From contig JANQHX010000007.1 of assembly GCA_028282465.1 (NCBI GenBank), forward strand, positions 1-64,000: 64,000 bases of DNA. The letters are read 5' to 3'. Under the pieces are notes generated by a model. The model ran no database searches. It was not told where the DNA came from and worked only from the letters and a program-made list of their open reading frames with translations. Source of the stretch: Gynuella sp. Its GTDB lineage: Bacteria; Pseudomonadota; Gammaproteobacteria; Pseudomonadales; Natronospirillaceae. Positions 1,856 through 54,147 of this stretch are shown piece after piece; position 1 is the stretch's first letter, and every line of letters begins with the position of its first letter. The position numbers and the translations under genes are program-made.

Positions 1856-2079
1856 CTAATGATTAATCCCGTAGTTCTTATATTATTTTATTACCCAGCT
1901 AGCTAGGGGCACACTCGCTGCGCCTTGTTTGACTCAAAAAACAGCCGACGCCAGCGTGAAACAAATTAGTGTTAGCAGGCCCTAACATAAATTAGCTGAT
2001 GTAGCTTCAGTGTAACAGGTTTAATGAGACAGCAACGTGGGAATAGAGTTTCATTGGGTTTACAGGACAGTGTTTCAGA

Positions 2080-2625
2080 CTAACGGCGAGGGTACTTACG
2101 AGCATTTACCCAGGCCGCTAGCAGACCGAATATAAAGCCAAAGATATGACTTTCAAAACTGGTTTGTGCTCGAAGATCTATTAAGGTGAACAGCATTCCA
2201 CCATAAAAAAAAGCAATCCAAATACTAATGAAAACGGGCTTCCAGCGTCGAATTAACCACCCGTAGACTAACAGATAAGACCAGTACCCCATGATTAGAC
2301 CGCTGGCACCGACGTGAACTCCAGGTCGACCCACTAACCATACCGCCATTCCGGTCAGGAAAATTATGATCCAAGTGACTCGCCAGAAATTAGGGGTTTG
2401 GGAGGCGAAAATGACGAACACAAAAAGAGGTAGGCTGTTCGCCATGATGTGCTCAAGACTGCCGTGAAGGAATGGAGAAGTAAATATACCGATAAGATGA
2501 ACCGGGCTTTGAGGTACCAGCCCGAACATATTGAGGAAATAGTGGGCGTGCATATTGATCAGCTGCAGCACCCAAATAAACACAAGCCAATTGATAGCTA
2601 ACCGAAAACTCTTCCCTAGCGTCAT
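2080..2625 (-). CDS. Rhomboid-family intramembrane serine protease
   Basis: The 181-aa polytopic membrane protein carries the catalytic 'GASGLIMG' (GxSG) motif in a TM helix and the 'SHIFGFIFG' (AHxxGxxxG-type) His helix. Its start is 7 nt after the stop of the upstream TerB-like gene, so co-transcription is likely. Confidence 0.7.
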   Translation of the reverse strand: MTLGKSFRLAINWLVFIWVLQLINMHAHYFLNMFGLVPQSPVHLIGIFTSPFLHGSLEHIMANSLPLFVFVIFASQTPNFWRVTWIIIFLTGMAVWLVGRPGVHVGASGLIMGYWSYLLVYGWLIRRWKPVFISIWIAFFYGGMLFTLIDLRAQTSFESHIFGFIFGLLAAWVNARKYPRR

Positions 2626-2632
2626 TTAAAAA

Positions 2633-2875
2633 TCAAAAATTCTCTAATATCTTTTTCAGCTCTTCTACACTTTCAGCCAGCTCAGGATCAAGCTCTTCTT
2701 GCTCCAAGCGAGCCATAACATTCTCCAGAACCTGCTTTTCTTTAGGATCTATATGACCGTCTCGAATAGCGATCTCCACCAAAGCACCCAACTCTTCAGC
2801 ATTCAAAGTCCCATGTTCGTCAAAGGCCTGCTTTGATCTAAAGGACATTTCCTGATGGTCTGATGAATCTTTCAT
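2633..2875 (-). CDS. Small (80 aa) TerB-like/DjlA-N-like protein, paralog 1
   Basis: It aligns along its full length with the 80-aa product of 11324..11566 (shared pattern ...SFRS...F...G.L...EL..LV.IA.RDG.ID..EK.VLEN...RL...EL..EL.E.V..L.K.L...). The 'IA.RDG.ID..EK..L' core resembles the TerB/DjlA N-terminal fold. Confidence 0.55.
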   Translation of the reverse strand: MKDSSDHQEMSFRSKQAFDEHGTLNAEELGALVEIAIRDGHIDPKEKQVLENVMARLEQEELDPELAESVEELKKILENF

Positions 2876-2988
2876 AACTCTGTCTCAATGGAATGGCTCT
2901 GGGGTTGGAATCGGCATGTAACATGGGTTCTAAAGACTAAGATACAAGGTTAACGCCGATATTCTGTTAAATACCAATAGTCTTTATG

Positions 2989-8262: not shown

Positions 8263-8337
8263 AGCCTGATCCTTGACTCAAATATTGGGAATTCAAAAAA
8301 GTTAATGGGCTGAAATGAATTCAACCCAGTGACTTTG

Positions 8338-10299
8338 TTAACCGTTGAACTGCTCTGGGTTTTTGTTTTCTTTTGCACCCAACGTCATCAGTTTTTCAAT
8401 CACCTGTTGAATTGCTGGACTTTTCCCAATTAAACCTTCAACGGCATTCCCCAGGCCCAAGCCTTGAGCCAGTTTGTTAAAGTAATCTCCTTGGCCACCT
8501 ACAATATCAATGTTGGCATTTTCAAAGGCTGCAGCCAGTACTTCTGCTTGATCTTTCGCAATGGATTTATTGGCATCAATACTCGCCATCACTTCTTGAA
8601 TTGCCGCTTCTAGGTTCATACGGAACTCTTCGAATTCACGAGCCTGTGGACTCATATTGCTCATGGCAGCAAATTTGTCGATCAAGCCCTGAGCTTCAGA
8701 TGATGCTTTCTGGCGGATAACCTCAGCAGAGGCCAGACCTTTTTCTTTCTCTGCTTTGGCAATTGCAAGCCCCATCTCTTCTTCACCACGGGCTTCTGCG
8801 GTAAGTAACTCTTCACGTACTTTTGCTTCAACCAGCCCTTTTTTCTCATCGGCAGCGGCCTGCGCTTCGGTGACTCTGGCCTCTACTAGGCCCTCTTTTT
8901 CAGTAGCATCGGCTTTGGCTTCCATCACTCGTGCCTGTGCCAAACCTGAAGCCGCCTCCTCAGCTTGCATACCTTCAGCTTTCTTCTTGCGAGATTCCGC
9001 GTCTTTCGCAGCAGCTTCTAGTTCAGCTTGAGCGATTAAGTTAATTTCTTTCGCTTTGTGGATGGCTTTCTGCTCATCTGCTTCTGCGGCCTTCACCTCT
9101 TTGACCATTTCTTCTTGAGCAACTGCTTCAGCATCTAGAATACGAACCTGCTTTTGGCGGTCAGCTTCTGACACTTCTCTCACCTCTTTAATACGCTCTT
9201 CTTCTTCAGCAACCTTCTTCTCAACTGCTATGCGTTCTGAAATAGTGCTGGCAATAATTTTACGCTCTTCTTCCAGTGCTTTTTCTTTATTGATCCGTTC
9301 TAGTTCAACTTCACGCTCTCGGTTTACCGCTTCTAATTGCTGGGCACGAACCACTTTCTCTTCTTCAACTGCAATGGCACGTTCGCGGTTTTTACTGGCG
9401 ATTTCAACTTGCCGCTGTTTGTTTTCTTCTCGAATAGCGACTTGCTCTTCGGTTTCAATGCGAGCCTGTTCTGCCTTTAAGCGCTCTTCTTCAACAACCT
9501 TTTTAGTCTCGGCTTCTTCCCGAGCACGCAGGGTATCGACTTCTCTTTGTTGTCTGGCTTCAGCATCTGCTTCCTGACGCTCTAGAGATAGCAAAGCCTC
9601 TCTGGCTTCAACATTTTTCTTGGTGATTGCCAACTCTTCATCTTTTTCAAGACGGTTGGTTTCTACATTTTGAGTAGCCGTTAATTCGGTGATACGACGA
9701 ATACCTTCGGCATCTTGAATATTATTTGGGTCTAACTGAGTTTTAGGAGTTTGCTCTAAATAGTCGATCGCTACATCTTCTAAAACATAGCCATTTAAAT
9801 CATTACCAATGACTTCAACAATTTTTTCACGGAATTGAATACGGTTTTCAAACAAGTCTAAGAAAGACATGTTTTTACCTACGGTTTTTAACGCTTCAGA
9901 GAATTTAGCGTTGAACAATAAGTTTACCGCCTCTTTGTCTGATGCACGTTCAACCCCAATGGCTTTTGCTACTTTTAATACGTCATCGGAGGTTTCATTT
10001 ACTCGCAAATAGAATGCAACGGTAATGTCTGCTCGAAGGTTGTCTTTACAGATTAATCCATCTTGACCCCGTCGATCTAATTCAAGAGTGATCAAAGAGA
10101 TCTTCATTACTTCTTTTCTGTGCACAATAGGTATTACCATTGAACCAGTGAAGCTCACCTTGGGCTTGCTCGCTGTAGTATTCACGATCAGGGCATGGCC
10201 CTGATCTATTTTTTTATAAAAAGCAGCATAAGAAAAAACCAACGCTACTACGGCAAACACAATTATCCCGATAACTGAGGTAAAAAACTCGGCACCCAT
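8338..10299 (-). CDS. yqiK: Flotillin-like SPFH/Band-7 protein (YqiK family)
   Basis: The 653-aa product has an N-terminal TM helix and an SPFH domain ('...SLITLELDRRGQDGLICKDNLRADITVAFYLRV...'). These are followed by a very long E/A/K/R-rich coiled coil ('EAEARQQREVDTLRAREEAETKK...'), typical of bacterial flotillins. It is paired with a YqiJ-like gene immediately upstream, as in E. coli yqiJK. Confidence 0.85.
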   Translation of the reverse strand: MGAEFFTSVIGIIVFAVVALVFSYAAFYKKIDQGHALIVNTTASKPKVSFTGSMVIPIVHRKEVMKISLITLELDRRGQDGLICKDNLRADITVAFYLRVNETSDDVLKVAKAIGVERASDKEAVNLLFNAKFSEALKTVGKNMSFLDLFENRIQFREKIVEVIGNDLNGYVLEDVAIDYLEQTPKTQLDPNNIQDAEGIRRITELTATQNVETNRLEKDEELAITKKNVEAREALLSLERQEADAEARQQREVDTLRAREEAETKKVVEEERLKAEQARIETEEQVAIREENKQRQVEIASKNRERAIAVEEEKVVRAQQLEAVNREREVELERINKEKALEEERKIIASTISERIAVEKKVAEEEERIKEVREVSEADRQKQVRILDAEAVAQEEMVKEVKAAEADEQKAIHKAKEINLIAQAELEAAAKDAESRKKKAEGMQAEEAASGLAQARVMEAKADATEKEGLVEARVTEAQAAADEKKGLVEAKVREELLTAEARGEEEMGLAIAKAEKEKGLASAEVIRQKASSEAQGLIDKFAAMSNMSPQAREFEEFRMNLEAAIQEVMASIDANKSIAKDQAEVLAAAFENANIDIVGGQGDYFNKLAQGLGLGNAVEGLIGKSPAIQQVIEKLMTLGAKENKNPEQFNG

Positions 10300-10333
10300 A
10301 ATTTATCTCTCCATATTTCTTATAGTCGAATAT

Positions 10334-10987
10334 CTATTTCAATTGCTGTTTAAAATCTTCTTCTGATACCACCTGATAAATTTCTTCAGCATCAGACAGC
10401 TTCTCGATAATGACCACTTGGTCATTTGTTTTAAAATTTTTGTTTGAGCGTATCTGTATAATTAAACTTGCGCCTTGTGCCTGCACATCCCCTTCGCCAA
10501 AGTGTTCATCAACTCTACTACTTCGAACACGACAGGTTTTACCCACTAATTCTTTCTTAGGAGCAGGAGCATAAGCGTTTCTAAAAAATTTCTTTAAAGG
10601 TCTGATCACAAACGATGTCACGGGCATCGCTATCGCAACACTACCAACCAGAATGGCTGCACCAATTGGCCATTTGAGCACACTATCCATCAATCCAAAT
10701 GGCATTAACCAAACACAGGTATAAGAGATCACCCATGAGGTTAAACTTAGTATCGTAAGAACAAACATAATGGGTACACCAGTAAAACCCATGGTGGAAA
10801 TAAAGCTGGTAAAACCACCGACCTCGCTAGCATCTACATCAACATCAACATCAATATCAGCATCAAAATCAAACACACCGAGCATTGAAATCAATGACAA
10901 ACAGATTGTCACCCCCAACATAATGCTGAACACCACGGTGGGAAATGACAATACGATCGCCAAATAAGCTTCTGTTGAATTTTCCAA
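10334..10987 (-). CDS. yqiJ: YqiJ-like inner-membrane protein (DUF1449, NfeD-like OB-fold partner of flotillin)
   Basis: The 217-aa product has several TM helices, an acidic 'DFDADIDVDVDVDASEVGG' stretch as in YqiJ, and a C-terminal soluble beta-rich (OB-like) segment. It ends 35 nt before the flotillin start. Confidence 0.7.
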   Translation of the reverse strand: MENSTEAYLAIVLSFPTVVFSIMLGVTICLSLISMLGVFDFDADIDVDVDVDASEVGGFTSFISTMGFTGVPIMFVLTILSLTSWVISYTCVWLMPFGLMDSVLKWPIGAAILVGSVAIAMPVTSFVIRPLKKFFRNAYAPAPKKELVGKTCRVRSSRVDEHFGEGDVQAQGASLIIQIRSNKNFKTNDQVVIIEKLSDAEEIYQVVSEEDFKQQLK

Positions 10988-13123: not shown

Positions 13124-15262
13124 CTATTTTGGATTTTTAGGCAAGCCAGTGTGCTGAGTCCGCGCATGTTGAAACTTTCTGCGTGCGCCGCTCTTCATTT
13201 TTCTTTCCCGTTGATATTTTTCTTGCTCTCTTCGAGTTTCAGCCGGCACCAAACATTTTTTACCCCGGCCAATCAAATCTTCACGCCCCATTTTTCTCAA
13301 TGCGGCGCGTAGCATCGACCAATTATCAGGGTCGTGATACCTCAAAAAAGCTTTATGCAAGCGACGTTGATCTTTGGTTTTAGCACTAAACACCAACTCA
13401 CTGCCCTTTCGTTTAATAGGCCTCAAAGGATTACGTTCGGTGTAATACATTGTGGAGGCCGTCGCCATGGGAGATGGGTAGAAGTTTTGCACCTGATCTA
13501 CCCGGAAACCATTGCCTTTTAACCATAGCGCTAAATTCATCATGTCTTCATCAGTGGAGCCTGGGTGTGCAGAAATAAAATATGGAATCAAATACTGCTC
13601 TTTCCCAGCTTCTTTGGAAAACTGTTCAAACATTTTTTTGAAAGCGTCGTAGGTGCCCATACCCGGCTTCATCATTTTAGTGAGTGGACCATCTTCAGAA
13701 TGCTCTGGGGCAATTTTTAAATACCCTCCCACATGATGCGTCACAAGTTCTTTCACATATTCTGGGTCTTCAACCGCAAGGTCGTACCGTAAGCCAGAGG
13801 CGATAGCGATTTTTTTAATGCCGGGAATTTCACGGGCTTTTCTATAAAGCTGAGTAGTTGGGCTGTGGTCGGTATTTAAGTTCGAACAAATTGTGGGATA
13901 AACACAGCTAAGCCTGCGACAGCTCTCTTCAATTTCTTTGCTCTTACAATTCAATCGGTACATGTTGGCGGTTGGGCCACCTAGATCCGAAATCTGCCCA
14001 ACAAAACCAGGGGTTTTATCACGAATTTGCTCTAACTCATTCAAAATACTTTCTTCAGAGCGGCTTTGAATAATGCGCCCTTCATGTTCCGTGATAGAAC
14101 AAAATGTGCAGCCACCGAAACAACCTCGCATGATATTTACTGAGGTTTTAATCATGTCATAAGCTGGAATTTTAGCGTCGCCATAAACCGGATGAGGAAC
14201 CCTTTGGTAGGGCATTTCAAATACCCAATCCAACTCTTCTGTTGTCAAAGGTATGGGAGGTTGATTCAGCCAGATATCATTTCGCCCATGACGCTGAACT
14301 AAACACCTAGCGTTACCAGGGTTGGTTTCTTTATGAAATATTCGGTCGGTATGGGCATACAGAAGAGTGTCTTTTTTAACGTCTTCGTAAGATGGTAATC
14401 GAATAAAAGAACCTTCAGGATCAGTTTGCACCGCCGCTGGGTCAGGTAAAATCGTTACCGCCTCCGCGCCAGAAAAATCTGCTTCTTTTTCCTGCTTTTC
14501 TTCTTCCATGGCATAAGGGTTTTTCTTCACCATGGGCTTACCGGGTTGGTCTATTCGCGTCGAGTCGATTTCTTCCCAGTTTTCCGGTAACTGTTTTCTA
14601 AGGAATGCCGTGCCACGAATATCTTGAATATCTTTTATCTTCTCGCCATTCGCAATTCGATGAGAGATTTCCACCAATGCTCTTTCAGCGTTTCCAAATA
14701 ATAGAATGTCTGCCGTGCTGTCTAATAAGACCGAGCGACGAATAGATTCACTCCAGTAGTCATAATGAGCCAGCCTTCTGAGACTAGCTTCAATGCCACC
14801 AATTATAACCGGCACATCATTGAAAGCTTCTTTGCATTTTTGGGTATAAACCGTTACTGCTCTGTCAGGGCGTTTACCGGCAACATCACCTGGAGTATAG
14901 GCATCGTCATTGCGATACCTTTTGTCGGCAGTGTAACGGTTGATCATAGAATCCATATTGCCGGCTGTGACACCAAAATACAGATTCGGCTTACCTAACA
15001 CTTTGAAATTATCGGCGCTTTGCCATTCAGGCTGCGCAATGATGCCAACTCGGAATCCCTGAGCTTCCAAGGTTCTGCCAATAACCGCCATACCAAAACT
15101 AGGGTGATCCACATAGGCATCGCCAGTCACCAGAATAATGTCGCAGCTATCCCAACCAAGCTGATCCATTTCTTCTCGACTCATTGGCAAGAACGGCGCA
15201 GTGCCAAAGCACTCTGCCCAGTATTTGCGGTAGTCGTAAATGGCTTTTGGTTGGGTTGTCAT
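13124..15262 (-). CDS. ygiQ: YgiQ-family radical SAM protein (UPF0313)
   Basis: The 712-aa product starts '[57 protein letters not shown]', which is colinear with E. coli YgiQ. The radical-SAM Cys cluster is '[13 protein letters not shown]'. The C-terminal tail is basic. Confidence 0.9.
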
Positions 15263-42442: not shown

Positions 42443-43336
42443 TCAGATTACAGTAAAGGTTCCCCGCCCGGACACTGAATTAAAGTAGATCCGGGCATCA
42501 CCGCTACCAAAGGTTTTTTTCACTCTGGTAGCACCCGAAATAATTTTTTCTGTACTTGAATGCCCGCTAATAATAGATTTCATGGCTACGCTGTGAGACC
42601 GCATTTCAATTTCTACATTTAATGGCTTGCGAGTACTCACCTCAACATCGCCAGTAATAGTATTAAAGGTAAAATCAGAGTTCCTTGATAAGGCCACCGC
42701 TAGAAAAATATCACCTGAGATAGTGTTGTATTCGATAACATCTATTCTAGAATCTCTAAACCTGTAGTTTCCAGAGACTGAATTAACCCTTAAAAGCTCG
42801 CCTTCTAATTGCCCTTCAACATTGCTGCTGATGCTATCAATAATTATCTTCCCTTTATGTTTTTCCAGTTCCAGCTCTGTATTAACAGTATTGAATCTAA
42901 AATCACCCACAGAATTAGAGAGTACGACCCTTCCACCTTCAGTTCGAATAACCCCACCAGACTTCAAATCTTTTACATATATATTCGATTTAACATCTTT
43001 TATATTCAGTGTGACAGATTCAGGCACCCTGACTAGCAGCTCACTGCCTGTTCCATTTTTACTAAGCCGATGTTTATTCAATAAAAACTTCACAACATAT
43101 TGCTGAGCTTCCACACTGTAGAACTTTGATTCTGAATCCAAAACACCAGATATAGAGATTACTGGCTTATCCCAGGATTCAATGGTGATATTCCCTCTAT
43201 AGTTTTCAAGTGAAAGTGTAGCGGATGTAGAGACATTAAACTCATAGCTAATTCTTCTGTCTTCTGGAACCGGAGTTTTACAAATTGCAGGCACAGAAAC
43301 AAACAGAATTAAAAACACAGAAGCAATAACTTTCAT
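42443..43336 (-). CDS. Secreted DUF4097/Toastrack-like beta-repeat protein (putative adhesin fold)
   Basis: It has a signal peptide and repetitive beta-strand segments ('GNI.IES...I.I'). It is the last gene of an ECF sigma / anti-sigma operon, as is typical for DUF4097. Confidence 0.6.
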   Translation of the reverse strand: MKVIASVFLILFVSVPAICKTPVPEDRRISYEFNVSTSATLSLENYRGNITIESWDKPVISISGVLDSESKFYSVEAQQYVVKFLLNKHRLSKNGTGSELLVRVPESVTLNIKDVKSNIYVKDLKSGGVIRTEGGRVVLSNSVGDFRFNTVNTELELEKHKGKIIIDSISSNVEGQLEGELLRVNSVSGNYRFRDSRIDVIEYNTISGDIFLAVALSRNSDFTFNTITGDVEVSTRKPLNVEIEMRSHSVAMKSIISGHSSTEKIISGATRVKKTFGSGDARIYFNSVSGRGTFTVI

Positions 43337-43337
43337 T

Positions 43338-43856
43338 TTATAGTCTCAACTTTTCTGCCGACTCGATTAGCAAGCGCTCTTTTTCGAGCGTCTTATGTAA
43401 TAGTGCGATCAGTTCGTTATTCCCCGGATCTTCACTCAATGCTGTTTCAATTTCTAGAAGCGCGATTTCAATCAATTGAAGATTAACAAGTATGGTTTCT
43501 TTTGCCTCTGTGGAAAGATGTTCTAAACGCTGAGGAAGATCTTCTTTCAACTGAGTGCGAATTGCCTGATAGTTTCCTTGAGTAGTATTGCTTTCTTGAA
43601 CAATTATCACAGGTTTCTGAGTGGAAAATACTAGGGCGAATGCTGCCATCAAGAAGGAGCAGGCAACTGCCAACTGATTCCAATCGGGTTTAAATGAAAA
43701 TCTATTTTTGTGAATCTTTGGTTCAGTAATACCTTTATCAATAGCATCCCAAAGATCTTTCTCTAGCGGAATAGAGTCCGGAAGATCTTCAATAGCTTTT
43801 TTGAGTTTCAAGTCCATTTCTAAATCGAACACATCTTTACTCATTGACTTAACCAC
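43338..43856 (-). CDS. Putative anti-sigma factor (single-pass membrane)
   Basis: The 172-aa product has one central TM helix ('LAVACSFLMAAFALVF'). It overlaps the ECF sigma gene stop by 16 nt and ends 2 nt before the DUF4097 start. Confidence 0.55.
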   Translation of the reverse strand: MVKSMSKDVFDLEMDLKLKKAIEDLPDSIPLEKDLWDAIDKGITEPKIHKNRFSFKPDWNQLAVACSFLMAAFALVFSTQKPVIIVQESNTTQGNYQAIRTQLKEDLPQRLEHLSTEAKETILVNLQLIEIALLEIETALSEDPGNNELIALLHKTLEKERLLIESAEKLRL

Positions 43857-44413
43857 TCTTTTAACATTGATTTGGCTCGGTGCAATTGTGCTTTACTGGT
43901 ACCGATAGCAATACCGACCTTGTCAGAAATTTCTTCATGACTAAACCCCTGTAATTCAAACAGTACGAAAACGGTTCTTGCTCCATCAGGTAGTTTGGAT
44001 ATCCCCATCTCAAGGTCTCGCCGATCATCGTCTAAGCTCGGATCAGCAGGTATGGATAAATCCAACTCTTCACTGTTTTCTTCGTACTCATGGCGTTTTA
44101 GTCTTATGCGGTCTAACACAATGTTAGTGGTGAGCCGATGGAGCCAAGTACTGAATTTACTGTCTCCACGGAATTGTTTGATTTTCTTCCAGGCTTGAAT
44201 AAAGGATTCTTGGGTTAATTCCTCAGACAATTCGCGATTCTTTGTCAGTCGCAAACAAATGGCAAAAACACGCCCTTTTTCAGCTTCATACAAATGTTTA
44301 AACGAAGCCTTATCTCCCTGTTTTACCGCAGAGATGAGTTCAGAGTAGTTTTCACTGGAATCTTGCTCGATGACATCCATTGTTATTTTTGTAGCTGCCA
44401 GTCTGTGCATCAT
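43841..44413 (-). CDS. ECF (sigma-70 family) RNA polymerase sigma factor
   Basis: It has a sigma-70 region 2 ('FKHLYEAEKGRVFAICLRLTKNRELSEELTQESFIQAWKKIKQFRGDSKFSTWLHRLTTN') and a region 4 HTH ('FVLFELQGFSHEEISDKVGIAIGTSKAQLHRAK'). Confidence 0.85.
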   Translation of the reverse strand: MMHRLAATKITMDVIEQDSSENYSELISAVKQGDKASFKHLYEAEKGRVFAICLRLTKNRELSEELTQESFIQAWKKIKQFRGDSKFSTWLHRLTTNIVLDRIRLKRHEYEENSEELDLSIPADPSLDDDRRDLEMGISKLPDGARTVFVLFELQGFSHEEISDKVGIAIGTSKAQLHRAKSMLKEWLSQ

Positions 44414-44611: not shown

Positions 44612-45055
44612 TTAGATGGCCTTTAGGAAGCATATGATTCGATCGACTTCTTCAAAACCTAACTTTTGATGTGCATTGATGCTTTGAGAATTACCGATTT
44701 CAGCGTCACTGGCTAAATAGTGATAACCGCTTTTTTGTGCCCAACGTTCGGCTTTCAGCATTAGGTCTCTACCTAAGCCTTTGCCTCTGAGGTCTTCATC
44801 CACATACCAACCCTCTATGTATGGAACGTTTTGCTCATCGGCTCCTTCAGCATAACTGCGAATATTGACTTCAATAAACCCGCCCAGGGTTAAGTCATCG
44901 CGCTCAATAACAAAGGTCTTTGTTATGTAGATACTTTTATCTAAAAAATAGTCTTTTGTTTGTTTACGGTGCTCTTTTGCGCTTTCTGGCCAAAGCAAGG
45001 TTCGCATTCGTATCCATTCTTTGCCATCGGATTTTTTTACCGACCTAACTTTCAA
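44612..45055 (-). CDS. GNAT N-acetyltransferase, AAC(6')-I-like
   Basis: The 147-aa product has 'LLWPE' near the N-terminus and 'LRGKGLGRDLM' (R/QxxGxG/A), which resemble aminoglycoside 6'-N-acetyltransferase type I enzymes. The substrate is not demonstrable from sequence. Confidence 0.6.
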   Translation of the reverse strand: MKVRSVKKSDGKEWIRMRTLLWPESAKEHRKQTKDYFLDKSIYITKTFVIERDDLTLGGFIEVNIRSYAEGADEQNVPYIEGWYVDEDLRGKGLGRDLMLKAERWAQKSGYHYLASDAEIGNSQSINAHQKLGFEEVDRIICFLKAI

Positions 45056-45323: not shown

Positions 45324-46712
45324 CTACATTTCACCTGCTGGGTCAGTATCTACGTTCAACACTAAATCAGACAGATCATTTGTCGCGACAGCGCTATAGA
45401 CACCGCCATTCATTAGTGTGGCGCTGGTAACAATTAGGGTATTTAGTGTCCCAGCTTCAGCTACCGCAAATGTGTAAAATCCCCCAGGCACCTCCAGAAC
45501 CGCGTTAGCATTGAGCCCAATGCCCGCAAGCACGACGGTATCCTGGCTAAAGTTGCCGTCAGCCGATGCGTGAATATCAACAGGTCCTATGCCTTCGGCA
45601 GCAGTACTTGCATGAACCACTCTCAGTTTTGCAAACAACGCGACAGAACGCAGATCTTCGGAAATAACCAGTGGGTCAATCGTTTCATCTGTTACATCGT
45701 TTAAATCACCAACTGCATAAATAGAGGTTGTCGACCCAGCAGCGAATGACACTCCAGGGGCATCAATAACGACTGGCTCGGTAGTACCACTAGGCACAAC
45801 AGATAGGTCGTACTCGCCCGCAGGTAAATCAGCTGATGCAAAGTCTTTAAATGCCACGCCGACGAAACCGGTAGGCATTCCACCAGCCAACACATCAACC
45901 GCTGGAGCGTCTTGTACCGCATGAACGACTCTCACCGTTGCCTGTTCACCAGTGTTCCTAATGACACCAACACCATCGGCTGAACCTAACAGTAGATTAA
46001 CTGGTGAAACTGCTCCACCGCTTACGTTAGGTACTGCGGTAATCATGAAATCGCTACCCCCGGCTAAATCTAAGTCACCGCTATCAAACACAACCGCAGA
46101 ATCACCTGCTAATGTAATTCGAATACGATAAGTACCGGAAGGGATAGTGACCGGCAGAACATCGCTGTCCGCCTTGAACTCTAAACCTGAAATCGCAGGA
46201 TCTACATCGTCAATGGTTTCTGACGTACTTAGATAAATGTCTACTCCAGGAACATCTGGGTGAGCGTGCAGAACATCTAAGCGAATGGAATCAGAAGCAA
46301 CCGCTTCGGCTGAACGACCCAGTACCACAGGTTCAATAGACGCTGCGTAGTTCACTGCAATCACATCGTACTGCATATCAGATTCAAGTGGTAAGTTTGC
46401 CGAAATAACAGTCGCTGAACTATCCCCAGGAAGTAATGCATCAACTGCGACCGCATAAGTACCTGGATCAACAGCGAGTAAACCGCTGCCTTGTTGGTAG
46501 TCAACCATGCCCAAACCTGAAACTACTGTCCCATCCAAACTTATCGACACCAATGGCGCGTCTGAAGAAGCGTGGGTAACTCTCAAGTAAGAGGAGCTTG
46601 GCTCTTCAGGCGCTTGACCGTCTGAGTTATTGTCATCGTCATCATCTGAATTTAAGCAGCCCCCTAAAGCTAGGGCTGACACGGCGATAAGTGAATAGGT
46701 GATTGTCTTCAT
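45324..46712 (-). CDS. DUF4397-repeat lipoprotein
   Basis: It has the lipobox 'LGGCLNSDDDDDNN' and then repeated 'LRV.HA..DAP.VDI...G.....L.Y' modules, 3 to 4 copies, characteristic of DUF4397. Confidence 0.75.
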   Translation of the reverse strand: MKTITYSLIAVSALALGGCLNSDDDDDNNSDGQAPEEPSSSYLRVTHASSDAPLVSISLDGTVVSGLGMVDYQQGSGLLAVDPGTYAVAVDALLPGDSSATVISANLPLESDMQYDVIAVNYAASIEPVVLGRSAEAVASDSIRLDVLHAHPDVPGVDIYLSTSETIDDVDPAISGLEFKADSDVLPVTIPSGTYRIRITLAGDSAVVFDSGDLDLAGGSDFMITAVPNVSGGAVSPVNLLLGSADGVGVIRNTGEQATVRVVHAVQDAPAVDVLAGGMPTGFVGVAFKDFASADLPAGEYDLSVVPSGTTEPVVIDAPGVSFAAGSTTSIYAVGDLNDVTDETIDPLVISEDLRSVALFAKLRVVHASTAAEGIGPVDIHASADGNFSQDTVVLAGIGLNANAVLEVPGGFYTFAVAEAGTLNTLIVTSATLMNGGVYSAVATNDLSDLVLNVDTDPAGEM

Positions 46713-46985
46713 TTTTTATATTCCTTTGTGGCTGTCGATAGGTAGACCGGTTTACGTCCCCTGGTGATGTGCCGATTAGGAAATATTTTTTTTTGGAAGA
46801 TATTTATCAGTTTAAAAAACTGGTGGATCTAACAATTTTTAAAAAGCGTACGAATAAAAATTAATTAAGATCAATGAAACCCGAAAAGAACTATTAACTC
46901 AGTACCAGCTGCGTTCTGTCAAAAGATACCCCCTTCCCCAAGCCTACTATGCGCAACAATTTAACGAGCAGGGACGACAAGACTG

Positions 46986-48020
46986 ATGCAAGCAAATATC
47001 AAGTTAACTGACTACAGTCATGGCGCTGGTTGCGGTTGTAAAATCTCGCCTCAAGTACTTAATGAAATTTTAAAGCATTCATCCCCTGAATCGAGAGATA
47101 TTAATTTATTGGTTGGAAATGGTTCACGAGATGATGCTGCCGTTTACGACTTGGGTAATGGACAGGGCGTCATTAGCACCACAGATTTTTTTATGCCGAT
47201 CGTAGACGACCCATTCGAGTTTGGGCAAATAGCTGCCGCCAATGCCATCAGTGATATCTATGCGATGGGCGGCAAACCAATCATGGCCATTGCCATTCTA
47301 GGATGGCCCATCAATCGACTCAGCCCAAGAATTGCTAATCAAGTATTGGAAGGCGGAAGAAGCATGTGCGCCCAAGCTGGAATACAGTTGGCTGGTGGCC
47401 ACAGCATAGATGCCCCAGAACCAATATTTGGATTAGCTGTAACTGGCACTGTTAGTTTGAAACGATTAAAGCGAAACAATAAAGCCAGAACAGACAGTAA
47501 ACTGTTTCTGACTAAACCTTTAGGAATTGGAATTCTTTCTACCGCTCAAAAACAAAACTGCCTACTCGACGAACATCAACACATCGGAAAAAAATGGATG
47601 TGTAAGCTAAACGACTTTGGTTACCAAGCCGCAAAACTGAAATCAGTTTCATCTATTACCGATGTCACAGGTTTTGGACTCCTAGGCCATCTCACAGAAA
47701 TGTGTTTAGGCAGCGGGGTCAGCGCCAATGTCTTTTTCGATAATGTTCCAGTCATTGAAGAGGCTTGGCATTATTTAGATAAAAACTGTATTCCAGGTGG
47801 TACTGGTAGAAATTTTGAAAGCAACTTCGAATACTTCAGTGAAATGAATGAAGCCCAACGCTTGATACTCTGTGACCCACAAACCAGCGGTGGTTTGCTG
47901 ATTGCGGTTGATCGCGAAGATTCCAGCCAACTAGAAGCTATGGCCAAAGAAACCGATTGCTTTATTCAAGAAATTGGCGAACTTAAGAAACAAACGCAAC
48001 CACTAATTTCAATAATCTGA
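46986..48020 (+). CDS. selD: Selenide, water dikinase (selenophosphate synthetase), Cys-type
   Basis: '[21 protein letters not shown]...[60 protein letters not shown]' is colinear with E. coli SelD. The active site is 'GAGCGCK', with Cys rather than Sec. Confidence 0.95.
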
Positions 48021-48976
48021 TGGCACTTACGTCAAAAAATCCCGCATATTCTGATCGGTGGATGGGAAGACGCTACTATCCCATTAGTCAGTATTTTAAA
48101 AACCTATTTGGCGAACGCATTGCTAAAATAGCTATCAGTGTCTCAGAGGCATGCCCTAACCGGCGAATTGGCAGCAAATTGGAGCCTTGCATTTTTTGCG
48201 ATGAATGGGGGTCTGCCGCCTATCATCGAGAAGCTAGCCGAGATCTATTGGATCAAATTCGATTCAATAAAGGTTTGGTCACTCGTCGTCATAAAGCCAA
48301 AAACTTCTTAGTGTACTTTCAAAGCTATACCAACACTCTAGATAAACTCGAAACCCTCGCTCATAGGTATCAGCTTGCTCTTACAGAGCCAGATATTAAA
48401 GGCTTGGTCATTGGCACTAGACCAGATTGTTTGCCTGATCGACTAATGCCAGTATTTGAGGATATCAGTACCCGACGCTATTTAATGATTGAAATTGGCG
48501 CGCAGAGTTTTTTTGATGACCAGTTGTTTTTTCTAAAACGAGGCCACACCAGCAAGACGAATATTCAAGCCATCCAAAAGCTTTCGGATCTCACTCATGC
48601 GGATATTGGTGTCCACCTGATTTTCGGCCAACCCAATGACACAAAAAGCAGAATCATCGAAACCGCACAAAGAATCAATGAACTGCCTGTTAACAATGTA
48701 AAGCTTCATAATTTGCATGTGCTAAAAAACACGGAGCTCGCTAATTTGTATTTTGATGGAGAGTTTATTCCAGATTGTTTAGAGGAATACACAGAGAAAG
48801 TCATACTATTTCTCAGGCACTTATCCCCAAAAATTTCTGTGCAAAGACTAGCTGGTTTAGCCAGTAGATGGGATGAACTTGTAGCACCCGGGTGGACTAG
48901 AGAAAAAATGCGCCCAATTGATTTTATTGAAAGCAGAATGAGGCAAACTGATTGTTACCAGGGGGATTTATTCTAA
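48020..48976 (+). CDS. TIGR01212-family radical SAM protein (YhcC-like)
   Basis: 'CPNRRIGSKLEPCIFC' matches the unusual YhcC Cys cluster 'CPNRDGTIGRGGCTFC'. 'YFQSYTNT' and 'GTRPDC' are also conserved with E. coli YhcC. Its ATG overlaps the selD TGA (ATGA). Confidence 0.85.
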   Translation: MALTSKNPAYSDRWMGRRYYPISQYFKNLFGERIAKIAISVSEACPNRRIGSKLEPCIFCDEWGSAAYHREASRDLLDQIRFNKGLVTRRHKAKNFLVYFQSYTNTLDKLETLAHRYQLALTEPDIKGLVIGTRPDCLPDRLMPVFEDISTRRYLMIEIGAQSFFDDQLFFLKRGHTSKTNIQAIQKLSDLTHADIGVHLIFGQPNDTKSRIIETAQRINELPVNNVKLHNLHVLKNTELANLYFDGEFIPDCLEEYTEKVILFLRHLSPKISVQRLAGLASRWDELVAPGWTREKMRPIDFIESRMRQTDCYQGDLF

Positions 48977-48996
48977 GAGCCTCTGACTAAACTTTA

Positions 48997-49770
48997 TCAA
49001 GATTCTTCAGAGGCCTGAGCATCTGCTTCTCGCGACTTAACTTTCACTAATTTACCCACTAACAGTCCAGATTCAAAAAGCAGGTACATGGGTACAGCAA
49101 GAATAGTTTGTGAAAATACATCCGGTGGTGTGGCTAACATGGCGATCGCAAAACATCCAACAAGAATATAGGGTCTTTTTTGAGAAAGGCTTTCAACCGT
49201 TGTTAAACCCGCCCATATCATCAGGACCGTGGCAATGGGTATCTCAAAGGCAATACCAAATGCAAAAAACATTTTCAGTATAAAATCTAACACGCTTGAA
49301 ATATCAGGAAGGAACGCCACGCCTTCTGGGCCAATTGCAGTAAAGAAGCCAAAAACTAGGGGCATAACAACGAAATATGCGAATGCAACTCCGGCGTAAA
49401 AAAGAAAGATGCTGCTGATTAGAAGTGGGATCGCAAAACGTTTTTCATTTTTGTAAAGCGCCGGTGCGATAAAGCCCCATACTTGGTGAAGAATATAGGG
49501 CACAGCCAACATAACAGCCAATACCAAGGTAAGCTTAAACGGAACCAAGAAAGGCGACGCCACACCGGTAGCAATTAAACCCGCATCCGATACATCACCA
49601 GGTAATAGAGACATCAATGGTTTTGCCGCTATCAAATACAATTGGTTTGCAAAGGTGTAGAGCCCCACAAACACAACGATCACCACGACAACTATTCGTA
49701 ATAACCTGTCCCGAAGTTCTTTTAGGTGTTCAACCAATGGCTGGGGAGTATCGTTGTTGTCCTGGGTCAT
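48997..49770 (-). CDS. tatC: Twin-arginine translocase subunit TatC
   Basis: The 257-aa product has 6 TM helices. 'PLVEHLKELRDRLL' is the TatC N-terminal signature. It is in tatABC order. Confidence 0.95.
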   Translation of the reverse strand: MTQDNNDTPQPLVEHLKELRDRLLRIVVVVIVVFVGLYTFANQLYLIAAKPLMSLLPGDVSDAGLIATGVASPFLVPFKLTLVLAVMLAVPYILHQVWGFIAPALYKNEKRFAIPLLISSIFLFYAGVAFAYFVVMPLVFGFFTAIGPEGVAFLPDISSVLDFILKMFFAFGIAFEIPIATVLMIWAGLTTVESLSQKRPYILVGCFAIAMLATPPDVFSQTILAVPMYLLFESGLLVGKLVKVKSREADAQASEES

Positions 49771-50120
49771 TTCTCGGATTTTTCTTCTTTGTTGCTGTTA
49801 GCGGTTTCATTCACTAACTGTTCTGATTCTGAGTCAGCTTCTTTGTTAGCTTCATCTTTTAATAGATGCTGAGCTTCTTTCTTTTCTGACTCATTATTAT
49901 TGGTGAAATTTAAGCCTTCGGTTTCGGATTTTATTTTCTTATTCAGTTCTTCCAAACGGATTTCTTGCTCTATTTGAGCCTGCATGCCATTAAAGAATCT
50001 TTTAACCTTACCCACAGTGCCTCCCACCGTTTTAGCAACCGCAGGAAGTTTCTCTGGGCCAATCACAACCATTCCAATAATAGCTAAGAACAGTAGTTCC
50101 AGAAATCCGACATCAAACAT
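49767..50120 (-). CDS. tatB: Twin-arginine translocase subunit TatB
   Basis: The N-terminus 'MFDVGFLELLFLAIIGMVVIGPEKLP' is followed by an amphipathic helix and an acidic tail. It lies between tatA and tatC. Confidence 0.85.
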   Translation of the reverse strand: MFDVGFLELLFLAIIGMVVIGPEKLPAVAKTVGGTVGKVKRFFNGMQAQIEQEIRLEELNKKIKSETEGLNFTNNNESEKKEAQHLLKDEANKEADSESEQLVNETANSNKEEKSEK

Positions 50121-50122
50121 AA

Positions 50123-50362
50123 TTAAGACTCAGTCTTATCTTTGTCTTTCGTTTCATCTTTCATTTCAGCAAAGTTGGCATCTTTCTGCTCTAACTTTTC
50201 GCCATCGGCAGGCTTGCTTTCTTCATCGTCCATGGCTTTTTTGAAGCCTTTGACTGCACCACCTAAATCGCTACCCAAACCCTTTAGTTTTTTAGTACCA
50301 AAGATCAGAATTACGATTACCAACAAGATGGCCAATTGCCATAAACTGATTCCACCTAACAT
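50123..50362 (-). CDS. tatA: Twin-arginine translocase subunit TatA
   Basis: The 79-aa product starts '[34 protein letters not shown]', the TatA/E signature. Confidence 0.9.
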
Positions 50363-50437
50363 TTTGTTCTCCTAACTATTTGATTTTGCTTTTCTGCAAC
50401 CCACGCATTCTAGTGGGCTGCTGTTACAAATTAAGTT

Positions 50438-50782
50438 TTAAAATCCTACCCAGTTATCATCTCTGACATCACCTAGGATATGAAAGTGTAAATGGGGTAC
50501 TTCTTGTCCACCCCCATCTCCTGAGTTAGCAATGACTCTGTAGCCTTCTTTGAGTCCGGCTTCAGCGGCAATTTGCTGCGTTTTCAGCAACATTTCGCCA
50601 ATTAGTCCGGAATCTCCAGGCTCCAATTCAGCTAGGCTAACAATGTGTTTTCTCGGAATTAACAAGATGTGTACGGACGCTTTTGGCGCTATGTCTTTGA
50701 AAGCCACCATCTGGTCATCTTGATACACAATGTCGGCGGGAATTTCACCTGCAGCTATCTTACAAAAAAGACAATCGGTCAT
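50438..50782 (-). CDS. HIT-family (histidine triad) protein, HinT-like
   Basis: The 114-aa product has the 'HLHFHILG' H-phi-H-phi-H-phi-phi triad. Confidence 0.85.
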
Positions 50783-51114
50783 TTTTGATTCCTCGAAGCT
50801 TTTTCTTCCAATCCTGACATATCAAAACGTCGAGCTAATTCGCTCAACACATCCTGTGGGCCAAGATCTAAATGAGACAGCATAACTAGGGTATGGAACC
50901 AAAGATCTGCGGTTTCATAAACTAGATCTGTTTTATCCGAACCCTCACTGGCAGCATCTTTAGCTGCCAACACAGTCTCAAAACTTTCTTCGCCCACCTT
51001 TTCAAGAATTTTGTTCAGGCCTTTATGGTGTAGTAAAGCTACATAGGACTCTTCAGGGGAGGAAGCTTTACGTTGTTCCAAAATCTCAGCTAATTGGGTT
51101 AATACGTCAGACAT
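50779..51114 (-). CDS. hisE: Phosphoribosyl-ATP pyrophosphatase HisE
   Basis: The 111-aa product reads '[19 protein letters not shown]...ILEKVGEE..E...A', the MazG-like HisE pattern. It overlaps the HIT gene start. Confidence 0.8.
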
Positions 51115-51131
51115 AAGTTTTACTTTTCAAA

Positions 51132-52763
51132 TCACTTCTTAAAGGCTAGAACAATTGAAACAACCATAACACTAAGCGCCATATAGGTAGGTTCTTTCAC
51201 TTCGGGCCAAAAATCGAAATAGGTCCAAATGCTTGCTAGTAAAGCTACATTTGCCACCCATTGCCAAAGTCGTTGAGTTTTTTGCTTCTCTAGAGAGGTT
51301 TCTAACTCTTGTAGTTTAACCTGTATTTGCTGACTAGATTGCGACCAATCTCCAGCCTGCTGCAGGGTATTGAACACTAAATCAGGGACTTGCGGGGCTT
51401 TTTCAAGCCATGCTGGCGTGTGCTGCCAAAGTGACTTTAGGGTTTTCAGGGGGTTTAGTCGGTCTTTTAGCCAATTCTCTAAAAAAGGCTTGGCGGTATC
51501 CCAGAGATTAAGCTCGGGATACAGATCCCGACCTAAACCTTCAATATTGAGCAAAGTTTTTTGAAGCAACACCAGTTGTGGTTGAACTTCCATATTGAAA
51601 CGGCGTGCCGTTTGAAATAAACGAACCAGCACCAGACCAAAGGATATCTCCGCCAAAGGCTTTTCAAATACAGGTTCACACACCGAGCGGATAGCACTCT
51701 CAAACTCTTGCACTTTGGTATCTGAAGACACCCAACCCGACTCTACATGGAGCTTGGCTACTTGATGGTAGTCCCGATTAAAAAACGCTAATAGGTTCTG
51801 GGCAAGATAGCTTTGATCTTGCTCGGACAGGGTTCCAACAATGCCACAGTCCAAACCAATATAGCTGGGGTCTTGGGGGTTATCTCTTGATACAAAAACA
51901 TTGCCTGGGTGCATATCGGCGTGGAAGAAGCTGTCTCTGAATACCTGGGTGAAGAAGATCTCAACCCCTCTCTCAGCAAGCTTTTTCATGTTGGTGCCCT
52001 GAGCATTTAGGGCATCAACATCTGACACCGGAATACCATAAATTCGCTCCATCACCAGAATCTGAGGCCGGGTCAGCTCCCAATACACTTCGGGTACATA
52101 GAGCTGATCTGAGCCCTCAAAATTCCTGCGCAATGTCGCCGCGTTGGCCCCTTCACGCATCAGATCTAGTTCATCCAGGATGGTTTTTCGGTATTCATCC
52201 ACCACTTCTACTGGGCGCAGGCGTTTACCATCAGGAATCAACTGAACCAGTTTGGCGATGATAAACATTAAAGCCAGATCGTTTTCGATGGTGTTTCGAA
52301 TTCCTGGCCGAATAACTTTGACCACAACATCTTCACCAGTGAGCAGAGTTGCCGGGTGCACCTGCGCCACAGATGCCGATGCCAATGGTTGTTCGTCGAA
52401 GCTCGCAAAATGCGTTTCAATGCTGCCCTTTAGCTGAGTTTCAATCACTGTTCTGGCTAGCTTGCCCTCGAAGGCAGGTACCTGATCTTGTAACTTGCTG
52501 AGCTCGGACGCTAATTCTTCGGGCAACAAATCTCTGCGGGTAGAAAGCATCTGCCCAAATTTAATAAATACTGGGCCAAGTGCTTCAAGTGCTAACCTGA
52601 CCCTCATGCCAACAGGTTGATTCACTGGAAATAGGTGCCTAAGAAACATTAGAGTCAATAAAACTCTGAGGCTAAAAGGCAAATGATGAACGGGTATTAA
52701 GGTATCGAGTCGAAATCTGGTGATCACCCAAGCAATTTTGATCAATCTAAACAATGCTTTCAC
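51132..52763 (-). CDS. ubiB: Ubiquinone biosynthesis protein kinase-like UbiB
   Basis: The 543-aa product has an ABC1/ADCK domain ('[19 protein letters not shown]', 'ASIAQVH.A.L..G..VVVKV.RP', '[11 protein letters not shown]'). It lies in ubiE-ubiJ-ubiB order. Confidence 0.95.
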
Positions 52764-53389
52764 TGCTGGATGGCTTCCATTTGTTGCTTCAACTTGTTGA
52801 TTCGAGCCTGTAGCCGGTCGCTTTGAAATCGCACGTCAGCCACCTTCTTAGAAAACTCTTCAGCTTGTACCGGGTGAGCAAACAAGCCACTTTCTTCTTT
52901 GATGAAATTGCGACTGCTACGGTCCAAATTACCAATAATAGATTGTGCTGAACTGGCTAAAAATCGGATACCATCAGCAATCAGATGTCCTGGAACATCG
53001 CCAGTCACGTCTGCGATAGCGGCCTCCCAGTCAATGTTCAAGCTAGACATGACAGATTGCAAAACACTTAGGCTCTGAGTACTACCTTGAACCTGTAGGC
53101 CAAATTCCATCAATGCCTGAGTTTTATCCTCCGCTGACGCAAGCTGTATAAAGTCCTTCATTAACCCACTGACTTCTGCCTGAGTATCGCCATCCCACTG
53201 CCCCATTAATCGAAGCTGTTGGGTTTCAATCATCAGGTATACATCTAAGTCAGGTTGCTGAAAGTGAAATCCAAATACTTGGCCTTGCAAGTTTTCAAGT
53301 CGCTTTTTAGAGACGGGATCGTACTTCAGCGCCTGATTAACCAAGGTTTCGATAGCTGCAATACCCGCCAATTTCAATGTTCGCATCAA
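52760..53389 (-). CDS. ubiJ: Ubiquinone biosynthesis accessory factor UbiJ (SCP2 domain)
   Basis: The 209-aa product is placed between ubiE and ubiB. It has an N-terminal SCP2-like region and a C-terminal coiled coil. The start and stop overlap the neighbouring genes. Confidence 0.7.
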
Positions 53390-54147
53390 AGCTTGATTCC
53401 CCGATGCAGAGCGACAATGCCACCGGTCATATTATGGTAGGTTACTGGGTCGAAGCCTGCTTTTTGCATCATAGCTTTAAGCGTTTCTTGATCAGGATGC
53501 ATGCGGATGGATTCAGCTAAGTATTTGTAACTGTCCGCATCATCGGTAACCAATTTGCCCATCAAAGGTAGGGCTTTAAAGGAATACTCATCGTACACCT
53601 TGCTTAGCAATTGCGAGGTTGGCTTTGAAAACTCCAGCACCAAGAGTCGACCACCTGGTTTTAACACCCTAAACATACTTTCTAAGGCTTTTTGTTTGTC
53701 AGTCACGTTACGCAGGCCGAAGGCAATCGTGATGCAATTGAAGTAGTTATCAGGAAAGGGCAGCTCTTCAGCGTTGGCTTGAATATAGTCCACATTTGAG
53801 GTGTGACCACGATCCACCATTCTTTCTCGGCCCACCTCTAACATTGAGCCATTAATGTCCGCCAAAACCACGTTCCCTTGATCACCCACGATATTGGCAA
53901 AAGCAGAGGCCAGGTCGCCAGTACCACCGGCAATATCTAATATTTTGTGCCCAGGCCGAGCGGCACTTAGCTCAATGGTGAAGCGCTTCCATAAACGATG
54001 AATGCCAAATGACATCAAATCATTCATCACGTCATATTTATTGGCGACGGAATGGAAGACTTCAGCGACTTTGTTTTTTTTCTCAGACTTGGGTACCTGC
54101 TGGTACCCAAAGTCGATGGTTTCCTGTTCAGACAAGAGATGACCCAA
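53386..54147 (-). CDS. ubiE: Ubiquinone/menaquinone C-methyltransferase UbiE
   Basis: The 253-aa product has '[28 protein letters not shown]' and the SAM motif '[12 protein letters not shown]'. Confidence 0.95.

Follow-up and report, generated by a model that had tools for sequence, protein, structure and literature searches.

A 64,000-nucleotide stretch of a Gynuella sp. genome (assembly GCA_028282465.1, contig JANQHX010000007.1, positions 1 to 64,000; hereafter the window) carries the selenophosphate synthetase gene selD directly followed by a gene for a radical S-adenosylmethionine (SAM) protein of the TIGR01212 (MnmL/YhcC) family. We propose, with a probability of about 0.5, that selD and this second gene, which would encode a divergent MnmL, form a two-gene, translationally coupled operon serving the wobble uridine (U34) of tRNA-Lys, tRNA-Glu and tRNA-Gln. 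The pairing would then probably reflect one shared tRNA-modification pathway and not new selenium chemistry. A preliminary description of the region had suggested that the radical SAM enzyme might carry out an uncharacterised selenium insertion or selenation. The function of the MnmL family, the canonical set of four cysteines in the protein and a sister clade in which the gene is accompanied by an MnmC-type methyltransferase gene speak against that proposal. Both SelD and the radical SAM protein are members of already known families.

The open reading frames (ORFs) of both genes lie where they had been placed before (Table 1). SelD gave full-length matches to the equivalog model NF002098 (519 bits, cut-off 299) and to TIGR00476 (428 bits, cut-off 125), and Pfam recognized the AIRS (PF00586) and AIRS_C (PF02769) domains. 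The N-terminal catalytic motif SHGAGCGCK is intact and contains cysteine, not selenocysteine. With 60-65% identity to the SelD proteins of Vibrio, Photobacterium, Xenorhabdus and Hafnia, the window SelD is, as far as its sequence tells, ordinary and entirely canonical.

At the junction the two coding sequences do overlap, as the preliminary description had it, but they share a single base (TGATG, in the context ...ATC TGA TGG...) and not the four bases ATGA given there. No Shine-Dalgarno-like purine run precedes the ATG of the radical SAM gene, and the only alternative in-frame start, Met15, would cut off Trp14, a residue conserved in homologues. Given these two observations, termination-reinitiation, and hence translational coupling of the radical SAM gene to selD, would stay the natural reading of the junction.

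The radical SAM protein matched TIGR01212 over model positions 1-300 of 302 with 221.3 bits (cut-off 180), which bears out its earlier assignment to the YhcC family. Its clade mates reached 247-262 bits and a Bdellovibrio homologue, from the phylum Bdellovibrionota, 257 bits; for comparison, the scores were 473 bits for Escherichia coli YhcC and 383 bits for a Clostridium homologue. The protein consists of a Radical_SAM domain (PF04055, 31.5 bits) and a Radical_SAM_C domain (PF16199, 70.7 bits). The cluster motif CX11CX2C is formed by C45, C57 and C60 (residues 45-60, CPNRRIGSKLEPCIFC) within CPNR...C.FC, and the spacing of the three cysteines equals that of C33, C45 and C48 in E. coli YhcC.

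An alignment combined 33 proteins of the gammaproteobacterial clade to which the window protein belongs, 16 homologues from Bdellovibrionota and 57 canonical family members, YhcC among them; in it, all positions invariant throughout the family were found to be kept in the window protein. From the N-terminus to the middle these are K36, CPNR...C..C, Q79, YFQxYTNT, GTRPDC, E158, G160, R174-G175 and H199, followed towards the C-terminus by G203, P205, K228, T238, Y257, R276, P290, W292 (PxW) and Q314-G315. Four cysteine columns are conserved, namely the three cluster ligands and the cysteine of GTRPDC, and they are identical in all three groups. Neither a clade-specific cysteine nor a second set of cysteines for an auxiliary iron-sulfur cluster was present in this alignment, and thus there is no hint of an auxiliary cluster or of a residue relaying selenium or sulfur. 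The window protein therefore lacks the extra conserved cysteine set that marks the sulfur- or selenium-inserting type represented by MiaB, RimO, LipA and BioB. Pfam and NCBIfam scans detected no SPASM, twitch or peptide-recognition domain, and no small ORF adjoins the gene in the window, which speaks against a maturase of ribosomally synthesized and post-translationally modified peptides. From these features the protein is best read as a divergent MnmL and not as a selenium-inserting enzyme.

With E. coli YhcC the window protein shares the TIGR01212 equivalog, the cluster motif, both domains, the four cysteines and the invariant core. It differs from YhcC, to which it is 31% identical, by motifs of its subfamily, among them FCDEWGSAAY downstream of the cluster motif, N231/H233 and a Trp inserted at position 284. 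Moreover, E. coli yhcC adjoins arcB and gltB and not selD. The nearest solved structures by sequence were the radical SAM domains of Elp3 (E = 5e-8, residues 129-271). Elp3, the radical SAM subunit of Elongator, acts in the formation of 5-carboxymethyluridine (cm5U34) and is likewise a radical SAM enzyme working at C5 of U34; it differs in carrying a KAT/GNAT domain and in building the side chain, which the window protein is predicted to trim. Against TIGR01211 the window protein reached only 45 bits (cut-off 350).

The family can no longer be treated as uncharacterised, as it was in the preliminary description; in NCBIfam the TIGR01212 model now bears the name 'tRNA modification radical SAM protein MnmL/YtqA'. 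E. coli YhcC converts 5-carboxymethylaminomethyl-2-thiouridine (cmnm5s2U) in tRNA to 5-aminomethyl-2-thiouridine (nm5s2U), both in vivo and as purified reconstituted enzyme, and during anaerobic growth it stands in for the O2-dependent oxidase domain of MnmC (bioRxiv 10.64898/2026.05.18.725915). YtqA (MnmL) of Bacillus and Streptococcus has been implicated in the same step at tRNA position 34 (bioRxiv 10.1101/2023.12.21.572861), and the MnmL activity in Bacillota is supported genetically. The distance between E. coli YhcC and Bacillus MnmL is about the same as that of either from the window protein. Neither of the two preprints mentions selD, selU or selenium, and in our literature search no paper tying selD to TIGR01212, YhcC or MnmL was found.

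Independent evidence on the function of the divergent proteins came from the Bdellovibrionota homologues. These are 42-48% identical and carry the same subfamily residues as the window clade, FCDEWGSAAY, N231/H233 and the Trp 284 insertion being common to both. In 15 of 16 Bdellovibrionota loci a stand-alone PF05430 gene, resembling the methyltransferase domain of E. coli MnmC, stands head-to-head with the radical SAM gene. That domain of MnmC methylates nm5s2U to 5-methylaminomethyl-2-thiouridine (mnm5s2U), the step after MnmL. Because the methyltransferase is the next enzyme of the pathway, the Bdellovibrionota pairing supports an MnmL-like function of the whole divergent subfamily, for which it would be the strongest independent functional evidence. 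An MnmL-MnmM pairing has been reported in Gram-positive bacteria, and the Bdellovibrionota arrangement mirrors it and looks like its proteobacterial counterpart. As in Bacillus subtilis, where MnmL and MnmM correspond to YtqA and YtqB, the gene of the predicted radical SAM demodifying enzyme is linked in the window to that of another enzyme presumably concerned with the same U34, the sister clade being analogous. Unlike in B. subtilis, the partner in the window is selD, which supplies selenium for C2, and not an nm5 methyltransferase gene; no nm5s2U methyltransferase, either MnmM or the MnmC domain, was encoded beside the gene, whether in the window or in the other gammaproteobacterial loci.

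The link to selenium is simplest explained by the nucleoside itself, because the substrate of the radical SAM enzyme would be the same nucleoside that SelU selenates. SelD and SelU together, known as the SeU trait, are established to give 5-methylaminomethyl-2-selenouridine (mnm5se2U) at the wobble position (PMC9312934). According to the mechanism we propose, the radical SAM enzyme would use SAM and a [4Fe-4S] cluster held by C45, C57 and C60 for an oxidative, O2-independent removal of the carboxymethyl group from cmnm5(s2)U34; the product nm5(s2)U34 would then be methylated to mnm5(s2)U34. SelD would make selenophosphate, and SelU (MnmH), which is assumed to be encoded elsewhere, would swap the 2-thio for a 2-seleno group on that nucleoside to give mnm5se2U34. 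The pairing would thereby bring about joint expression of the branch that acts on the C5 side chain and the branch that supplies selenium, probably at low O2. In this scheme the catalytic activity of the window protein is predicted from its sequence, and both the presence of SelU in the source genome and the shared nucleoside as the reason for the linkage are presumed. The preliminary description had also guessed at a selenated nucleoside; it pointed in the right direction as regards the involvement of a nucleoside, but the radical SAM enzyme as the selenating enzyme finds no support.

In Gammaproteobacteria, selD also occurs in operons with selU (mnmH). There, as in the window, selD stands alongside a gene for an enzyme acting on the 5-substituted 2-thiouridine (xm5s2U34) of tRNA. 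The window partner differs in that it is predicted to act on the C5 side chain and to use no selenophosphate, and SelU, with its rhodanese and P-loop domains, was absent from the window and all related loci. The preliminary description had seen no canonical selenium-trait gene nearby, and for the 64 kb of the window this holds: none of E. coli SelU, SelA and SelB gave a tblastn match, ARAGORN detected zero tRNA genes, and NCBIfam and Pfam scans of nearly all window ORFs of at least 120 aa named no other selenium gene. Using E. coli SelU, SelA, SelB and MnmC as queries, tblastn returned nothing in the window or the fetched related loci, the search for SelU beyond the window covering 1.54 Mb of related loci. 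As to the selenocysteine trait, selA and selB were absent from the window and the related loci, and no tRNA-Sec was present in the window.

The adjacency of selD and the radical SAM gene is more than chance. The preliminary description had reckoned with a chance neighbourhood in case selU/mnmH and the selenocysteine machinery sat elsewhere in the genome and the arrangement belonged to this lineage alone. The arrangement is not so confined: in the gammaproteobacterial clade, whose members are 53-67% identical to the window radical SAM protein, 8 of about 23 lineages have selD as the immediate upstream neighbour of the radical SAM gene, and the flanking genes are shuffled. To examine these relatives, contigs were looked up by exact protein match and metagenomes were scanned. 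A scan of one genome per species, in which TIGR01212 loci were inspected with up to 10 kb on each side and the closest relatives were under-sampled, listed 80 loci, none with selD or selU near the TIGR01212 gene; among the matches listed, selD was found within 10 kb in 0 of 75 other TIGR01212 loci. The linked loci (Table 1) include a metagenome-assembled Bermanella genome (L083), a locus represented by two nearly identical contigs (L091 and L100) and one in which the radical SAM gene has decayed (L107). Assemblies carrying the linked module are GCA_036960565.1, GCA_003358065.1, GCA_052725035.1, GCA_041156845.1, ENA ERZ511469 and JGI 3300025465.

Within 7 kb, the linked loci share no flanking genes except a major facilitator superfamily (MFS) transporter gene in L086 and L107 and GGDEF-domain paralogues. 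The pair has been kept at about 60-65% protein identity despite this full turnover of the flanks, which argues for selection on the linkage. The flank turnover also makes it quite unlikely that the pair is a neutral hitch-hiker, i.e. an ancestral accident left unseparated in some descendants and devoid of functional meaning. A single ancestral arrangement, which would fit such a history, is indeed suggested by the linked SelDs of L083, L086, L091, L103, L106 and L107, which are 69-87% identical to one another and cluster together, beside unlinked SelDs such as one from Halieaceae, and most clade members are without the linkage. On the other hand, the pairing is specific, as the 75 other TIGR01212 loci show, and in the window the two genes have come closer still, to a one-base overlap, after loss or in the absence of a small ORF that separates them in relatives. 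The SelD of the window forms a branch of its own; its identity to every other linked SelD is 60-63%, the same as to the Vibrio and Photobacterium proteins. The SelD sequences are better accounted for by one old arrangement that was lost several times than by recruitment on several occasions.

Synteny between the window and L083 was considered and rejected, the divergently transcribed upstream genes (the DUF4397 gene for 462 aa in the window and a gene for a 504-aa protein without Pfam match in L083) not being homologous. A recent horizontal acquisition of the selD region was likewise rejected, since G+C content and skews over 42-54 kb were unremarkable. The MFS transporters of L086 (4398-5666, minus strand) and L107 (8512-9834, plus strand) are 49% identical, and a role in the module is possible. 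Genes related to tRNA were seen near the module in L112, where a TmcA-type tRNA cytidine acetyltransferase gene (1255-3441) lies 5 kb upstream, and near the radical SAM gene in L084, where a class I aminoacyl-tRNA synthetase gene of the Glu/Gln type (9301-10815) is convergent with it; these neighbours may be coincidental.

Shared regulation alone could also have brought the genes together. Both would then be wanted at low oxygen, MnmL to replace MnmC, and SelD mainly to feed selenocysteine synthesis for anaerobic selenoenzymes such as formate dehydrogenases. E. coli yhcC is activated by FNR and needed only anaerobically, and the incidence of MnmL drops with rising oxygen requirement. Neighbours with O2-independent or denitrification functions were found in L105 (hemN and two U32 genes), in L107 (ubiTUV-like genes) and, next to the small ORF, in L108 (nirS-like and nosRZDFYL genes). 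However, this anaerobic theme appeared in only 3 of about 11 neighbourhoods inspected, and no selA, selB or selenoprotein gene was seen in any locus. The Bdellovibrionota sister clade, moreover, includes Bdellovibrio, which are aerobic predators. Nor did the region upstream of selD reveal a conserved FNR/CRP-type box in the linked loci. An FNR-like site with 1 mismatch, TTAATtaagATCAA, does lie at 46861-46874, 118 nt upstream of selD in the window, but 7 such sites occur in the window against 5.2 expected, i.e. at chance frequency, and no comparable conserved site was present in L083, L086, L091, L103 or L106; regulation of selD by an FNR/CRP-type factor through this site was therefore dropped. 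Altogether we regard shared regulation as the sole reason for the pairing as unlikely, though not far-fetched.

In the metagenome-assembled Marinobacter locus L105 (3878-8359), the radical SAM gene has neither selD nor the small ORF beside it; its neighbours are two genes of the U32 peptidase family and a radical SAM gene of the hemN type, which suggests an O2-independent neighbourhood. In L107 the module is preceded by an SCP2 gene and two U32-family genes, which by their Pfam content resemble ubiT-ubiU-ubiV.

In most of the linked relatives, a small ORF of 55-83 codons is located between selD and the radical SAM gene. This trio was found in L086, L091, L103, L106 and L112 and as a decayed copy in L107. 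In L084, L089 and L094 the small ORF immediately precedes the radical SAM gene in the absence of selD, and in L108 it stands alone, between nirS-like and nosRZDFYL genes. Its place is nearly always right before the radical SAM gene and often right behind selD. The encoded protein has a variable N-terminal part and a tail of the form ...L.QII.D(I/V)RERD(A/S)xK(K/N/T)C(L/I)CRG, followed by 1-4 residues, in which the K, C, C, R and G were invariant in 35 sequences. Over the 27 best-conserved codons, 17, 11 and 27 columns varied at codon positions 1, 2 and 3, respectively. Thus, third positions vary most, as expected for a real coding sequence and not for a conserved RNA or DNA element. The small protein had no match in Pfam or NCBIfam and none in the PDB beyond generic coiled coils, and it is rare, with 38 clusters among 5.8 billion proteins. 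An AlphaFold2 model consisted of two helices, the basic tail being less confident. As a guess, it might be a partner subunit of the radical SAM enzyme with a role in redox or tRNA binding.

Traces of the small ORF were found in further loci. In L083, the 80 nt that separate selD from the radical SAM gene (7925-8000) contain a frameshifted remnant, with IQEVRRRDANKK and NLCRGRS plus stop codon in different frames, and L088 and L092 may have a short remnant. In L107 the small ORF is followed by a radical SAM remnant (8208-8340) of about 40 first codons, which breaks off ahead of the CPNR cluster motif; the idea of an independent selD-small ORF pair in this locus was therefore rejected. Neither a copy nor a remnant was present in any frame of the window, where selD and the radical SAM gene abut directly.

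The trio raises the question of whether selD, the small K-x-C-x-C-R-G protein and the radical SAM enzyme constitute a system for an undescribed selenation in marine Gammaproteobacteria, of which the window would be a streamlined two-gene version. Its reaction would fall outside the five known uses of selenium, i.e. selenocysteine, 2-selenouridine via SelU, the selenium cofactor of molybdenum hydroxylases, selenoneine and ovoselenol. It might be a SelU-independent selenation of the wobble nucleoside, or a modification or selenium loading of the Cys-x-Cys tail of the small protein, acting as carrier or substrate. The recurrence of the trio, the coding selection on a rare small ORF without family match, the lack of any known selenophosphate client in these loci and the clear divergence of the radical SAM subfamily from characterised members are all in line with such a system. 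Known sulfur-inserting radical SAM enzymes, however, carry extra cysteines for an auxiliary cluster, and the enzyme described here has no such conserved residues and no SPASM or peptide-recognition domain. Its subfamily features are common to the Bdellovibrionota clade, in which no selD neighbour was present among the listed loci and an MnmC-type methyltransferase gene is found instead. Furthermore, the small ORF is absent from the window and many clade members and occurs without selD or alone, and SelD is entirely canonical. We therefore consider new selenium chemistry very unlikely.

Several observations weigh against the interpretation of the pair as a selD-MnmL operon for one wobble nucleoside. 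Selenation at C2 and trimming at C5 are chemically independent, and shared regulation alone would explain the pairing. The key partner SelU is assumed, selU (mnmH) having been seen neither in the window nor in any related locus. The window protein attained less than half of the canonical MnmL/YhcC score (221 versus 383-473 bits) at 31% identity to YhcC, and with this divergence its substrate or reaction may have shifted. In about 15 other lineages of the clade, i.e. about two thirds, selD is not adjacent, and a close SelD relative in a Halieaceae metagenome-assembled genome stands alone. Finally, the tRNA-modification model leaves the small Cys-x-Cys protein unexplained.

Table 1 Features of the selD-radical SAM region in the window and of related loci
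Feature	Location	Strand	Remarks
selD, selenide-water dikinase (selenophosphate synthetase), 344 aa, Cys-type	46986..48020	+	NF002098, TIGR00476, AIRS + AIRS_C; GAGCGCK
Divergent MnmL/YhcC-type (TIGR01212) tRNA-modification radical SAM gene (best reading), 318 aa	48020..48976	+	TIGR01212, Radical_SAM + Radical_SAM_C
Stop/start junction TGATG, one-base overlap	48018..48022	+	selD stop TGA 48018-48020, radical SAM start ATG 48020-48022; read from the sequence
Intergenic region upstream of selD, 273 bp, shared with the divergent DUF4397 gene; presumed promoter region	46713..46985	+	no element identified
DUF4397 lipoprotein-like gene, 462 aa, divergent from selD	45324-46712	-	
Hairpin between radical SAM stop and convergent tatC 3' end; possible bidirectional terminator	48979..49016	.	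fold -17.6 kcal/mol, weakly supported
selD-linked loci	window; L083 (metagenome-assembled Bermanella); L086; L091; L103; L106; L112; L107		
Small ORF (K-x-C-x-C-R-G protein), with selD	L086 7401-7622; L091 ~2390-2578; L103 5829-6038; L106 5750-6001; L112 9791-9997; L107 8001-8207		
Small ORF, without selD	L084 7806-7997; L108 8001-8222; L089 and L094 just upstream of the radical SAM gene		
PF05430 methyltransferase gene (Bdellovibrionota)	L007-L022, ~60-900 bp upstream of the radical SAM gene	opposite	e.g. L016 9215-9913, L018 955-1755

Promoter and terminator scans around the operon gave nothing on the plus strand, and no sigma-70-like site was detected on that strand upstream of selD. The hairpin downstream of the radical SAM gene folds marginally better than shuffled sequence (z-score -1.78), is without a T-run and was missed by the terminator scan. 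Convergent with the operon, a row of minus-strand genes (48997-54147) comprises tatC, tatB, a HIT-family phosphoramidase gene, hisE-like, ubiB, ubiJ-like and ubiE, the names hisE, ubiB and ubiJ resting on a reading of the translations; none of these housekeeping neighbours is shared with the other selD-linked loci. On the other side, also on the minus strand, genes for an extracytoplasmic function (ECF) sigma factor, a probable anti-sigma factor and a DUF4097 ('toastrack') protein follow each other (42443-44413), next to a gene for a GNAT protein (44612-45055) that reached 131.7 bits with the model for group E of aminoglycoside 6'-N-acetyltransferases, under the cut-off of 140. A second radical SAM gene of the window (13124-15262, minus strand) belongs to the YgiQ family (TIGR03904, 867 bits). 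A 1757-aa protein with DUF3686 ('ATPase involved in DNA repair'), DUF7902 and AAA domains is encoded within 2989-10987 (minus strand), followed by 653-aa and 217-aa proteins without family match, and these genes may form a defence or repair module.

Altogether the result is mostly deflationary, as no new chemistry is needed to account for the link to selenium once the function now characterised for the family is considered. The conserved selD-MnmL linkage and the small Cys-x-Cys protein were both absent from the literature searched, and the small protein is the one really unexplained piece. The analysis gives a probable function to the divergent half of the MnmL family, a half without an experimentally studied member. 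If the proposed interpretation is true, some marine bacteria link in one operon two independent branches that decorate a single wobble base, trimming at C5 and selenium at C2, which would suggest that the cell makes mnm5se2U as a unit, perhaps when oxygen is low.

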